From: Escherichia coli
Lineage (GTDB): Bacteria > Pseudomonadota > Gammaproteobacteria > Enterobacterales > Enterobacteriaceae
Assembly: GCF_030013595.1 (NCBI RefSeq)
Contig: NZ_CP122768.1
Reading direction: 5' to 3' (one strand)
DNA length: 64,000 nucleotides
Below, in pieces: positions 1 to 33,073 of this stretch. Under the pieces are notes generated by a model. The model did no database searches, had not been told where the DNA came from, and was given only the letters and a program-made list of their open reading frames with translations. Both the position numbers and the translations under genes were made by a program. Within the stretch, counting starts at the first letter, position 1. The number at the start of each line of letters is the position of its first letter.

Positions 1-737
1 TGGAAACATTAGCAAAAAATGCCGATGTGGTTTTATCGCGATCTTATTTATGTGCCGAAGTATGGAAGAACCGTATTGTCGGCGGAAACAGCCTACCGAC
101 GGCGATCCATGCATTGCGCGTTGCTATCGATGATGATGGCAAACAACAGAACATTATTAAAACCATCCCGAAAAAAGGTTACCTGTGCAATAAAGAGTAT
201 GTGTCTTTGCCGGAGTCATCGCCTGCAGAAGCGCTGATTATTACCGACCAGATACAGGATACAGCCCCAGAAGAGATATCTTCGACAACACCGCCTGTGC
301 CTGTCAGAAAAAAACATAAAGGACTGATGGGGTTAGCCTTGACCGCGGCTGTTATATTTATTGGCTCGACCGTGGGGTATTCACACTTGAAAAATACACC
401 TGACGCCCCGCAGCTGGTAAAAGAGTCAATTAACAGTCCAAGAATAAAAATATTTCATCTTAGTTCTGGAAAAGAAAATAATTCTGTACCGTTACTGTCA
501 CAAACCCTCGCACCAGGAAAAGACAAACTCGATAATTTATTGTCAGCGCATAATATGACAATGACAACCTATTATAAATATGTTCGTAACCGACTGGAGA
601 GTGATATTGTTCTGCGCAACCAGTGCAACGGTAGCTGGCAATTAACTTTTAATGTGGATAGCTGGCAGAATAGCGATATTAATAGCGCGATGTATCAGAA
701 TTTAGAGAAGTTGTTAAATACTGTGCAGAAGTGCTGA
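1..737 (+). CDS. lafZ: ToxR/CadC-type transmembrane transcriptional regulator, 5' partial (coding frame starts at position 3)
   Basis: Open frame runs in from the window edge; OmpR-type winged-helix motif (LSRSYLCAEVW ... TIPKKGY), one TM helix (GLMGLALTAAVIFIGSTVGY), C-terminal periplasmic domain; sits after the lafW-like gene as in Flag-2 loci. Confidence 0.6.
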   Translation, partial: ETLAKNADVVLSRSYLCAEVWKNRIVGGNSLPTAIHALRVAIDDDGKQQNIIKTIPKKGYLCNKEYVSLPESSPAEALIITDQIQDTAPEEISSTTPPVPVRKKHKGLMGLALTAAVIFIGSTVGYSHLKNTPDAPQLVKESINSPRIKIFHLSSGKENNSVPLLSQTLAPGKDKLDNLLSAHNMTMTTYYKYVRNRLESDIVLRNQCNGSWQLTFNVDSWQNSDINSAMYQNLEKLLNTVQKC

Positions 738-791
738 TGAGTGCCAATATATGCCGGATACGACGCTAAAGGCGTCTTATCCGGCTGATAA

Positions 792-1769
792 TTACCCCAA
801 TAAATTCCTCACCGTCTGGCTGGAAATTCGCGCCTGACCGTTCACCGCCTGCAATAAAACCTGATAGTTATGATTGGCGCTATCCAGCACGCCGCCGAGA
901 TTTTCCGACGCCTGCACGGCGCTTTCCGTTTGCGGGAAGCGCGACATGCCGTCGATCAACTGCCGCGCCTTTTCCTGCTGTACCGCCATCTGCACACGCT
1001 GCTGATTAATGCTTTCTAACGTCTGAGAAATCCCCGCTCCGCCCTGTTGCAGGCTTTGCACTAAGCGGTCCGCCTGCGACGGTTCGGCAAAGGTTTTTAG
1101 TGGCATAAACGCTGATTTATCACCATCGGTGCGCACGCTTAGGGTGCTTTCAATGTTGGGCCACTGTTTTTCAGTGGTGGAGAAACTTATACCATCGGCG
1201 TTTTGATGCATCTGCACGCCCACGCGGCGCAGGGCGTTGGTCAGCCGCGTTTGATACTGCGCGGCGCTGTCATCCTCAGACAGCATCACCGCCGAAAGCT
1301 GAGTCTGCCGCCCGTCAGAGACGCTGAACATCCGCGTTCCCGGCGTGGGATTGTGTACCAGATTCGCCAGATCCGGCGAGTGAAAGCTCACCCGCGCTTC
1401 CCCCTGCAACACTGGCTGCAACTGGCGGTCCACCGCACCGCCGGAAAGCGCGGTGCGTTTGTCCAGCATCTGCATCAGCGCCGTACTCTGCGCCTGCCCG
1501 CCCTTACGCTGGCTGTGACGGTAATCGAGCAACTGCTGCTCCAGTTGCCCGAGATAATGATCCGCCTGCTGCAACGTGGTGAGCTGGTCGTTAAGCTGCA
1601 CGCTGTAACGCTGCGGGCGAGTGGTAATCAGCGGCGAGGCCGGATATTCACTCGCCGTCGCCGGGAGTTTTTGCCGCACCGCCTGAGTGGGCGCAACGGT
1701 TGACGACGATACCGCAGCGCTATGCGCGCCGCCGGTGGTGAGTGACGAAGAAGTAAGTCCGACCTGCAT
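792..1769 (-). CDS. Flag-2 associated protein of unknown function, Ser/Thr/Gln-rich (possibly LafW)
   Basis: 325 aa ORF immediately downstream of lfgL on the same strand (16 bp gap); no recognisable catalytic motif. Confidence 0.6.
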   Translation of the reverse strand: MQVGLTSSSLTTGGAHSAAVSSSTVAPTQAVRQKLPATASEYPASPLITTRPQRYSVQLNDQLTTLQQADHYLGQLEQQLLDYRHSQRKGGQAQSTALMQMLDKRTALSGGAVDRQLQPVLQGEARVSFHSPDLANLVHNPTPGTRMFSVSDGRQTQLSAVMLSEDDSAAQYQTRLTNALRRVGVQMHQNADGISFSTTEKQWPNIESTLSVRTDGDKSAFMPLKTFAEPSQADRLVQSLQQGGAGISQTLESINQQRVQMAVQQEKARQLIDGMSRFPQTESAVQASENLGGVLDSANHNYQVLLQAVNGQARISSQTVRNLLG

Positions 1770-1785
1770 ACTGCTCCTGAAAGAG

Positions 1786-30899: not shown

Positions 30900-32976
30900 A
30901 TCGTTCCTCGCGCTGCTGCGCGGCGGCAATCTCGGCGTGCCGCTGGTGATACTTTGTATTCTGGCGATGGTTATTCTGCCGCTGCCGCCTGCGCTGCTGG
31001 ATATTCTGTTCACCTTCAACATTGTGCTGGCGGTGATGGTGCTGCTGGTGGCGGTGTCGGCGAAACGACCGCTGGAATTCAGCCTGTTCCCGACCATTTT
31101 GCTGATCACTACCTTAATGCGCCTGACGCTCAACGTTGCTTCTACGCGCGTGGTGCTGCTGCACGGGCATCTCGGCGCGGGCGCGGCGGGTAAGGTGATT
31201 GAGTCGTTTGGTCAGGTGGTGATTGGCGGCAACTTTGTCGTCGGTTTCGTGGTGTTTATCATCCTGATGATCATCAACTTTATTGTCGTCACCAAAGGGG
31301 CCGAGCGTATTTCCGAGGTTTCTGCCCGCTTTACCCTGGACGCGATGCCCGGCAAACAGATGGCGATTGACGCCGATCTTAACGCCGGGTTGATCAACCA
31401 GGCGCAGGCGCAAACCCGGCGTAAAGATGTTGCCAGCGAGGCCGATTTCTACGGCGCAATGGACGGGGCATCGAAGTTTGTGCGCGGGGACGCCATCGCC
31501 GGGATGATGATTCTGGCGATCAACCTGATCGGCGGCGTCTGTATCGGGATCTTCAAATACAACCTGAGCGCCGATGCCGCCTTCCAGCAATATGTGCTGA
31601 TGACCATCGGCGACGGCCTGGTGGCGCAGATCCCGTCCCTGCTGCTCTCCACCGCGGCGGCAATTATCGTCACCCGCGTCAGCGACAACGGCGATATCGC
31701 CCATGACGTGCGCCACCAGCTGCTGGCAAGCCCGTCGGTGCTCTACACCGCCACCGGGATCATGTTTGTGCTGGCGGTGGTGCCGGGGATGCCGCATCTG
31801 CCGTTTTTGCTGTTCAGCGCCCTGTTGGGTTTTACCGGCTGGCGGATGAGCAAACGCCCGCAGGCGGCGGAGGCAGAAGAGAAAAGCCTCGAAACGCTGA
31901 CCCGGACTATCACCGAAACCAGCGAGCAACAGGTCAGTTGGGAAACCATTCCGCTGATCGAGCCTATCAGTTTAAGTCTCGGCTACAAGCTGGTGGCGTT
32001 GGTGGACAAAGCACAGGGCAACCCGCTCACCCAGCGAATTCGCGGCGTGCGGCAGGTGATTTCTGACGGCAACGGCGTGCTGCTGCCGGAGATCCGCATT
32101 CGGGAAAACTTCCGCCTCAAGCCCAGCCAGTACGCCATATTCATCAACGGCATTAAGGCCGATGAAGCGGATATTCCGGCGGATAAACTGATGGCGCTGC
32201 CCTCCAGCGAAACCTACGGCGAGATAGAAGGCGTGCTGGGGAACGACCCGGCGTACGGGATGCCGGTCACCTGGATCCAGCCCGCGCAGAAGGCGAAGGC
32301 GCTGAATATGGGGTATCAGGTGATCGACAGCGCCAGCGTGATTGCCACCCATGTGAACAAGATTGTGCGCAGCTATATTCCTGATTTGTTTAACTATGAC
32401 GACATCACGCAGTTACACAATCGCCTGTCATCGATGGCACCACGGCTGGCGGAAGATTTGAGCGCGGCACTCAATTACAGCCAGTTGTTGAAAGTGTACC
32501 GGGCGCTGCTGACCGAAGGCGTTTCCCTGCGCGATATTGTCACCATCGCCACCGTGCTGGTCGCCAGTAGCACAGTGACCAAAGATCATATCCTGCTGGC
32601 GGCCGATGTGCGCCTGGCATTGCGGCGCAGCATTACCCATCCGTTCGTTCGCAAGCAGGAGCTGGCGGTGTATACGCTGAATAATGAACTGGAAAATCTG
32701 CTGACCAACGTGGTGAATCAGGCGCAACAGGGCGGGAAAGTGATGCTCGACAGCGTGCCGGTCGATCCGAATATGCTCAACCAGTTCCAGAGTACGATGC
32801 CGCAGGTAAAAGAGCAGATGAAAGCGGCGGGGAAAGACCCGGTGCTGCTGGTGCCGCCGCAGTTGCGTCCTTTGCTGGCGCGTTATGCAAGGTTGTTTGC
32901 GCCGGGGCTGCATGTGCTGTCGTATAACGAAGTGCCGGACGAGCTGGAGTTGAAGATTATGGGGGCGTTGAGTTGA
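30883..32976 (+). CDS. lfhA: Flagellar export apparatus protein FlhA
   Basis: 697 aa; FHIPEP-family N-terminal membrane domain. Confidence 0.9.
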   Translation: MAKTTKSFLALLRGGNLGVPLVILCILAMVILPLPPALLDILFTFNIVLAVMVLLVAVSAKRPLEFSLFPTILLITTLMRLTLNVASTRVVLLHGHLGAGAAGKVIESFGQVVIGGNFVVGFVVFIILMIINFIVVTKGAERISEVSARFTLDAMPGKQMAIDADLNAGLINQAQAQTRRKDVASEADFYGAMDGASKFVRGDAIAGMMILAINLIGGVCIGIFKYNLSADAAFQQYVLMTIGDGLVAQIPSLLLSTAAAIIVTRVSDNGDIAHDVRHQLLASPSVLYTATGIMFVLAVVPGMPHLPFLLFSALLGFTGWRMSKRPQAAEAEEKSLETLTRTITETSEQQVSWETIPLIEPISLSLGYKLVALVDKAQGNPLTQRIRGVRQVISDGNGVLLPEIRIRENFRLKPSQYAIFINGIKADEADIPADKLMALPSSETYGEIEGVLGNDPAYGMPVTWIQPAQKAKALNMGYQVIDSASVIATHVNKIVRSYIPDLFNYDDITQLHNRLSSMAPRLAEDLSAALNYSQLLKVYRALLTEGVSLRDIVTIATVLVASSTVTKDHILLAADVRLALRRSITHPFVRKQELAVYTLNNELENLLTNVVNQAQQGGKVMLDSVPVDPNMLNQFQSTMPQVKEQMKAAGKDPVLLVPPQLRPLLARYARLFAPGLHVLSYNEVPDELELKIMGALS

Positions 32977-33005
32977 TGGGGGAGACTATATAAGGTCTCG
33001 GACTG

Positions 33006-33030
33006 TCCCCTCGCCCCTTTGGGGAGAGGG
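33006..33030. repeat. GC-rich palindromic intergenic repeat, single unit
   Basis: cccctcgcccctttggggagaggg directly after lfhA. Confidence 0.75.
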
Positions 33031-33073
33031 AGAAAAACGTGTACGACTTTAACTTTTTCGCAGTATTGCCGTC

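Follow-up and report, generated by a model that had tools for sequence, protein, structure and literature searches.

A Flag-2 flagellar locus of Escherichia coli with intact core genes, a frameshifted lafV and an EcoRII/Dcm-type cassette

When an Escherichia coli chromosome carries a second flagellar locus in which every core gene in view is unbroken, is that enough to expect a second set of flagella? Flag-2, a lateral-type secondary flagellar system, was described in 2005 and surveyed across the Enterobacterales in 2020, EcoRII/Dcm, LafV, GT2 and TagD cargo included, and its type description is reportedly that of Ren et al. in 2005, for strain 042. Here we have analysed a 64,000-bp stretch of E. 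coli DNA (NCBI RefSeq contig NZ_CP122768.1; the window), for which a first-pass annotation had proposed a complete and intact Flag-2 locus directly beside yafL. We conclude that this is very probably an ordinary Flag-2 locus of E. coli whose core is intact and which lies where such loci are usually found, between yafL and dinB.

Megablast against 5,426 complete E. coli genomes places the window on the chromosome, in the reverse of the K-12 orientation, with positions 1-32976 comprising Flag-2 clusters 1 and 2, lafW and the 3' 87% of lafZ (Table 1). We counted as the core set lafW, lfgL-lfgA, lfgM, lfgN, lfiJ-lfiE, lafK, lfiM/N/P/Q/R, lfhB and lfhA, a total of 29 genes (28 when lafW is excluded). 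On direct translation of the window, none of the 29 core coding sequences is interrupted by a stop, and their lengths are those of the orthologues in strains 042, 1190, NRZ14408, MS1266, E700025 and PCN033, which bears out the first-pass statement that the flagellar frames are full length and stop-free. Similarly, when the gene models of a close relative, HCP5S3_I2, made by the Prokaryotic Genome Annotation Pipeline (PGAP), were mapped on the window by tblastn, all products aligned end to end at 99.6-100% identity. Cluster 1, comprising lfhAB-lfiRQPNM-lafK-lfiEFGHIJ, has 14 of its 14 genes, intact and in the expected order, at 19912-32976; cluster 2 (lfgNMABCDEFGHIJKL) also has 14 of 14 intact, at 1786-15651, its contiguity being broken by a 3,020-bp restriction-modification (R-M) cassette. 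The first-pass annotation had noted that some Flag-2 strains carry inactivating mutations, and this is so for 042, in which lfgC is frameshifted; here lfgC is unbroken and encodes 143 amino acids (aa), scoring 131 bits with the FlgC equivalog model (cut-off 102). Compensating frameshifts in lfgI, the glycosyltransferase (GT) gene, the tagD-like gene and lafK, raised by paired BLAST gaps, were ruled out by protein alignments, which have no window-specific out-of-frame stretch in any of the four; the gaps reflect a polymorphic signal peptide in LfgI and, in the other three, normal variation that stays in frame. The core genes in view evolved under strong purifying selection, the ratio of nonsynonymous to synonymous divergence (dN/dS) being 0.00-0.21 at dS of 0.03-0.31 for 26 of the 29 (two to four ungapped comparisons each).

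Table 1. Positions of the Flag-2 genes and associated elements in the window
Feature	Position	Strand	State and description
lafZ, 3' part	1..737	+	residues 37-280 of 280; ToxR/CadC-like, Trans_reg_C domain; cut by window edge, not mutation
lafW	792..1769	-	intact, 325 aa; Enterobacterales-restricted; predicted flagellin/hook-associated protein-like fold
lfg block L,K,J,I,H,G,F,E,D,C,B	1786..11020	-	all intact; hook-associated proteins, rod-binding protein, P-/L-ring, rod, hook, hook cap
lfgL	1786-2715	-	intact
lfgK	2730-4106	-	intact
σ28-like motif CTTAAG-N15-CCGCTTTTA	4135..4167	-	upstream of lfgK; putative, from motif common to lfgM/lafA
lfgJ	4312-4611	-	intact
lfgI	4611-5711	-	intact
lfgH	5726-6391	-	intact
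lfgG	6597-7382	-	intact
lfgF	7457-8194	-	intact
lfgE	8194-9396	-	intact
lfgD	9538-10251	-	intact
lfgC	10251-10682	-	intact
lfgB	10685-11020	-	intact
perfect σ54 consensus TGGCACAGCGATTGC	11058..11072	-	38 bp upstream of lfgB start codon
lfgA	11102..11839	+	intact, 245 aa; P-ring chaperone
R-M cassette	11845..14864		3,020 bp; between lfgA stop codon and lfgM promoter region
Dcm-like C5-cytosine methyltransferase	12027-13451	+	Pfam DNA_methylase 4.9e-79, DNA_meth_N
EcoRII-like endonuclease	13539-14744	-	Pfam EcoRII-N 2.8e-60, EcoRII-C 3.5e-70
9-bp tandem repeat CAGAACGAC	14798..14830		54-86 bp upstream of endonuclease start codon
σ28-like motif TTAAAG-N15-CCGCTTTAC	14868..14898	+	upstream of lfgM; identical in six strains
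lfgM	14935-15210	+	intact; anti-σ28 factor
lfgN	15223-15651	+	intact; chaperone
σ54-like site CGGCACGCTTATTGC	15729..15743	+	one mismatch; 36 bp upstream of lafV; identical in six strains
lafV pseudogene	15779..16709	+	remote FliB-like putative flagellin lysine-N-methylase
GT2-family glycosyltransferase	16889..19360	+	intact, 823 aa; variable region 1 (VR1) cargo, putative flagellin modification
TagD-like cytidylyltransferase	19505..19909	-	intact, 134 aa; TIGR01518 114 bits, under cut-off 165
lfiJ	19912-20346	-	intact
lfiI	20349-21686	-	intact
lfiH	21679-22389	-	intact
lfiG	22393-23403	-	intact
lfiF	23381-25027	-	intact
lfiE	25032-25373	-	intact
lafK	25388-26374	-	intact; σ54 activator (AAA+, HTH_8, no receiver domain)
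lfiM-lfhA block	26747..32976	+	switch proteins and export gate
lfiM	26747-27598	+	intact
lfiN	27591-27962	+	intact
lfiP	27959-28711	+	intact
lfiQ	28714-28986	+	intact
lfiR	28988-29770	+	intact
lfhB	29760-30899	+	intact
lfhA	30883-32976	+	intact
lfhA-yafL spacer	32977..33073		97 bp, without rayT; collapsed copy of palindromic repeat
yafL	33074..33823	-	C40/NlpC-P60 peptidase; flanking core gene, convergent with lfhA

The yafL side of the chromosomal site, yafL(/rayT)...dinB, is directly in the window, where lfhA and yafL adjoin as the first-pass annotation had said, and the dinB side was seen in HCP5S3_I2. The window opens inside lafZ, at residue 37 of 280, and the locus therefore continues upstream, again in line with the first pass. 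Only lafW and 87% of lafZ represent cluster 3 (lafWZABCDEFSTU) in the window. In HCP5S3_I2 the upstream part consists of lafZ, lafA, fliD, fliS, a hypothetical gene, fliK, fliL, the σ28 gene, motA and lafU, followed by dinB, and none of the genes from lafZ to lafU is flagged as a pseudogene in the PGAP annotation. The description of the locus as complete and intact holds for the core genes in view but is an overstatement for the whole, as lafV is frameshifted, cluster 3 lies outside the window and intact frames are no proof of function.

The unusualness that had been implied for the locus is not borne out. Taking at least 80% coverage of each half of the locus as carriage, about 1,250 of the 5,426 complete E. 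coli genomes (23%) carry Flag-2, and most loci are complete; in published work 24 of 100 E. coli were positive and 77.9% of enterobacterial Flag-2 loci retained all 39 conserved genes (PMC6993521), while in a panel of bovine strains the region was either wholly present or wholly absent (PMC5422975). K-12 keeps only fragments of lfhA and lafU at the same site, as the first-pass annotation had said, and has rayT beside yafL: 1,713 bp of lfhA remain, ~97% identical to window positions 31264-32976, and everything between about codon 127 of lfhA and lafU is deleted.

The closest genomes are those of HCP5S3_I2 and LCP30S3_I5 (NZ_CM149870.1 and NZ_CM149862.1), both isolated from pig faeces in the UK in one study, at 99.8-99.9% identity, and the next closest are at about 96-97%. 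Over window positions 1-41077 HCP5S3_I2 differs by 20 single-nucleotide polymorphisms (SNPs) and five indels, all of the latter intergenic. The two pig isolates are like the window in gene order, gene content, the lafV frameshift, the R-M cassette and the rayT-less 97-bp junction, whereas the window has two extra copies of a 9-bp repeat and has lost ~26.7 kb of a neighbouring type VI secretion system (T6SS) cluster. Enteroaggregative strain 042 (NC_017626.1) has the same three-cluster architecture, the same yafL...dinB flanks and the same VR1 genes, namely lafV and those for the GT2 glycosyltransferase and the TagD-like protein. However, its lafV is intact, rayT lies beside its yafL, a RelE/HTH toxin-antitoxin pair separates lafW from lafZ, and there is no EcoRII/Dcm cassette in its 80-bp lfgA-lfgM spacer. 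The combination found here, of an intact core, a lafV-null allele, EcoRII/Dcm and a rayT-less junction, is a minor lineage variant already in RefSeq.

Three features had escaped the first pass, namely the lafV frameshift, the R-M cassette and the intergenic palindromes and REPs. The lesion in lafV is a +1 frameshift caused by one extra T (T3 to T4) at 16543-16546, in codon 255 of 309, with a premature stop at 16607-16609. Its position was found by aligning lafV with its 309-310-aa counterparts in 1190, NRZ14408 and MS1266, which are intact; moreover, three-frame translation has the reading frame switching near 16545, the HCP5S3_I2 orthologue is marked as frameshifted by PGAP, and deleting one T from the run restores a 309-aa open reading frame. 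An assembly error is unlikely, given that the T4 run is short and common to the window and two other assemblies. Two of the 1,009 genomes with this segment have the extra T, both of them the pig isolates, and the lesion is therefore recent and private to the lineage. With NF038110, the model for FliB-type methylases, the truncated LafV of the window scores 37.1 bits and the intact LafV of 1190 scores 42.8 bits, both below the cut-off of 85, and they cover profile positions 105-338 and 105-367 of 373, respectively, the N-terminal ~100 positions being missing. LafV is accordingly a remote FliB homologue with a putative methylase function. Its loss would mean that any FliB-type methylation is gone in this lineage, without assembly being blocked.

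The R-M cassette has a GC content of 0.38, compared with 0.56 in the remainder of the Flag-2 locus, and takes the place of 5 bp in the lfgA-lfgM spacer of 042. It has the predicted composition of an EcoRII-type (type IIE) system, in which an endonuclease with EcoRII-N and EcoRII-C domains adjoins a C5-cytosine methyltransferase, and the endonuclease matches EcoRII of PDB 1na6 with 628 bits over residues 1-399. The cassette is present in 28 of the 5,426 complete genomes, chromosomal and single-copy every time, and EcoRII plus Dcm have already been listed as Flag-2 cargo in 21 Escherichia strains (PMC6993521). Between strains, dS is 0-0.075 in the cassette and 0.11-0.24 in the flanking lfgA and lfgN, so the cassette is younger than the surrounding alleles, and its low divergence suggests recent spread among Flag-2 alleles by recombination. 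The repeat CAGAACGAC has 3.7 copies in the window and 1.7 in HCP5S3_I2, 1190 and MS1266, which is the largest single difference between the window and its closest genome. With the endonuclease gene convergent on that of the methyltransferase, the cassette probably abolishes whatever read-through there is from lfgA to lfgMN and leaves lfgMN on its own σ28-like promoter, the motif of which begins 4 bp (three intervening bases) right of the right edge of the cassette and is unchanged. More tentatively, the cassette may rewire the LfgM checkpoint through the cut in read-through, and it may also favour retention of the island by making the recurrent deletion between lfhA and lafU costly.

Repeats have also entered the locus. 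GC-rich palindromic repeats of ~125-140 bp, with arms CCCTCTCCC...GGGAGAGGG, lie at 4170-4310 (lfgK-lfgJ), 6458-6584 and 16720-16859; incomplete copies are present at 26529-26574 and 32997-33030, and sequences like repetitive extragenic palindromes (REPs) occur at 7417 and 9443. The repeats are situated between lfg operon genes, and their presence and length differ among strains. The palindromes may be akin to 'box C' elements. For window positions 1-20000 there is a median of 18 matching places per genome, the many extra matches being presumably dispersed copies of the repeats.

How would such a locus work? The lateral systems of Vibrio parahaemolyticus and Aeromonas hydrophila are experimentally functional. 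By description, in part that of PMC3032704, they resemble the E. coli locus in using LafK with σ54 and then σ28, in their LafA flagellin and LafTU stators, and in having no chemotaxis genes, and the order of events proposed here draws on this analogy and on promoter motifs. LafK, a σ54-dependent activator to judge from its Sigma54_activat (7e-64) and HTH_8 domains (Pfam, which gives it no receiver domain), would switch on the hook-basal-body operons, there being a perfect σ54 site before lfgB. Assembly would then involve LfhAB/LfiPQR as the export gate, LfiHIJ as the ATPase complex, LfiFGMN as the MS and C rings, LfgB-LfgJ as the rod, rings and hook, and LfgKL and probably LafW as the junction proteins. 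Export of LfgM would free σ28 (LafS) to transcribe lfgMN, lfgKL, lafA and lafTU, while environmental signals probably enter through LafZ, which profile matches identify as a ToxR/CadC-like regulator and which would be membrane-bound. The VR1 genes (lafV, GT2 glycosyltransferase and TagD-like cytidylyltransferase) may serve to modify flagellin. The E. coli locus differs from the Vibrio and Aeromonas systems in having lafW, lafZ and the VR1 cargo, and in lacking motY and maf-5 (PMC3032704).

As regards the promoters, the σ54 site before lfgB (TGGCAC-N5-TTGC) is kept with no more than one mismatch in five other strains, and is one of two perfect σ54 matches in the 64 kb; HCP5S3_I2 has a perfect σ54 site upstream of lafB. 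The other perfect match in the window, TGGCACATACATTGC at 56902-56916 on the minus strand, lies outside Flag-2, past the aspV tRNA. With up to two mismatches allowed, the σ54 pattern is not enriched (68 found, 88 expected), and only perfect or near-perfect sites in upstream positions were used. The canonical flag-1 σ28 consensus has no match with up to three mismatches at the expected upstream positions, and we derived a locus-specific σ28-like motif in its place: T(T/A)AAG-N15-xCG(C/T)TTT is common to the sequences preceding lfgM, lfgK and, in the relative, lafA. All of the σ54 and σ28-like motifs of the Flag-2 locus are conserved in the other strains containing the region. Over the whole window the flag-1 σ28 consensus matches 35 times, 15.8 being expected and none of 100 shuffles reaching 35, and most of these matches fall inside coding regions. 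Generic scans for σ70 promoters (17 found, 16.4 expected) and terminators (29 found, 24.4 expected) gave about as many hits as chance predicts and play no part in the analysis, and Rfam at gathering thresholds gave nothing within the Flag-2 part, its matches being rRNA and tRNA at 55-64 kb only.

The unbroken frames, together with the purifying selection, speak for use of the proteins, but do not show when or for what. Together with the conserved σ54 and σ28-like motifs, the purifying selection fits a maintained, conditionally expressed system. That the locus builds working flagella is in our opinion possible but somewhat less likely than not; the fuller proposal, of a working σ54/σ28 lateral system that responds to LafZ-sensed conditions (low temperature, surfaces, viscosity) and makes filaments without LafV-type methylation, seems to us rather unlikely. 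Several points weigh against a working system. In EC958, which has lfgC intact but lacks lafWZ, neither LafA nor Flag-2 motility was found at 28 or 37 °C (PMC4637896), and the swarming of E. coli W could not be traced to Flag-2 (PMC3032704). We infer the integrity of cluster 3 (lafA, lafS, lafTU) from a relative that is 20 SNPs apart in 41 kb, the promoter assignments are putative, being motif matches only, and no convincing σ54 site was found for the lfiM or lafK operons. Expression could be lowered by the palindromes and REPs within the lfg operon and by the R-M cassette, and the lafV frameshift and the T6SS loss associated with an IS66-family insertion sequence (IS) suggest that accessory loci of this lineage are decaying to some extent. 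Finally, we know of no E. coli in which Flag-2 expression or motility has been shown.

A number of these points would also be consistent with the locus being intact but silent, that is, a cryptic ancestral cluster which is no longer deployed, in which decay is starting, and which persists only because its loss en bloc needs a rare recombination between lfhA and lafU. The absence of Flag-2 expression in EC958 (PMC4637896) and the loss of the locus from ~77% of E. coli by one recurrent deletion (PMC6993521) favour this, as do the frameshifted lafV here, the IS insertions and pseudogenes in other strains, and the invasion of intergenic sites in the operons by palindromic repeats, REPs and the R-M cassette. 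However, dN/dS of 0.00-0.21 at dS of 0.1-0.3 in 26 of the 29 core genes is inexplicable unless the proteins have long been under selection, the promoter motifs have been conserved, the majority of loci are complete (PMC6993521), and the sole lesion here is very recent and in a non-essential modification gene. We consider silence to be conceivable but on the unlikely side.

It has also been proposed, by De Maayer et al., that cargo-encoded proteins are secreted (PMC6993521), and the cluster could be kept for such a non-motility role, in flagellar type III export of other proteins, or as a structure that serves adhesion or modulates immunity, a view helped by the lack of a demonstrated motility phenotype in E. 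coli (PMC4637896, PMC3032704). Yet selection on the rod, ring, hook, junction and switch genes is as tight as on the export gate, the stator genes, flagellin and cap are intact in the relative, and the cargo in the window is an R-M cassette and modification enzymes, with no candidate secreted protein among them, which makes this role improbable. To return to the reading of Flag-2 as a maintained, conditionally expressed flagellar system, the strength of the purifying selection sharpens the question of what Flag-2 does, since the proteins are clearly kept for something. For finding out whether Flag-2 of E. coli ever makes flagella, this strain has practical value as a clean test strain, because the core is intact, lfgC is unbroken, unlike that of 042, and the lafV-null allele is a natural one.

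There remains the junction with yafL, for which the first-pass annotation had given a gap of 98 bp without a rayT-like gene. The stop codon of lfhA ends at 32976 and that of yafL starts at 33074, which makes the spacer 97 bp long and not 98, while the absence of rayT stands: tblastn with K-12 RayT across the 64 kb found no homologue (best E = 1.1). In other strains the spacer holds rayT with REPs (K-12, where it is 896 bp, and 042), hicAB (E700025, 788 bp) or a complete palindromic repeat (PCN033, 161 bp). For a survey, a chimeric query was made of the 3' end of the window lfhB plus lfhA, followed by the K-12 rayT spacer. At most 778 of the ~1,250 Flag-2-positive genomes have rayT or REPs with an undeleted lfhA, rayT is lacking in roughly 40% of Flag-2-positive genomes and in a similar share of Flag-2-deleted ones, and all four combinations of Flag-2 and rayT were seen at comparable frequencies in an evenly spaced sample of the ranking. 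Given the varied content of the spacer among strains, the lack of rayT is thus an allelic state of an intergenic hotspot that is polymorphic, with no bearing on Flag-2. The idea that a junction without rayT is special, ancestral or recently rearranged and tied to Flag-2 retention, to which the presence of rayT and REPs in Flag-2-deleted K-12 (and also in 042) but not in the window might have pointed, was rejected on these coverage classes and on the alternative occupants of the site, is largely refuted, and is in our view very improbable.

Within cluster 3, LafW has no sequence match in Pfam, NCBIfam or the PDB. An AlphaFold model made from 42 homologues (predicted local distance difference test score, pLDDT, 72.8) was used in a fold search, in which the top matches are flagellins, namely 4nx9 (E = 6e-7), then 3k8v and V. 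cholerae FlaA, although TM-scores are low at 0.25-0.31. The predicted fold fits the label 'hook-associated' and not the PGAP name FlhF. The HCP5S3_I2 orthologue is named 'flagellar biosynthesis protein FlhF' without any FlhF-like family match, and since there is no family match and the modelled structure best resembles flagellins, this name looks like an annotation error.

Beyond yafL, the dinJ-yafQ pair that in K-12 lies between yafL and dpaA (yafK) is missing, leaving a spacer of 290 bp at 33833-34123, and tblastn with K-12 DinJ and YafQ found no homologue of either in the 64 kb; the pair is likewise missing at this site in HCP5S3_I2, E700025, PCN033 and 042. Further along, at 41078-44237, ~26.7 kb of the aspV-linked T6SS cluster is gone in comparison with NZ_CM149870.1 (4223217-4249942), including Rhs arrays, VgrG, TssM, TssL, TssK, TssJ, Hcp, Tae4/Tai4 and the 5' part of tssC. 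A copy of the IS66-family element ISCro1 (open reading frames at 41108-42679, 42699-43046 and 43046-43720) sits at the junction, followed by a 154-aa tssC remnant. With this much of the cluster missing and an IS66-family copy at the junction, the T6SS is probably inactivated in this strain.

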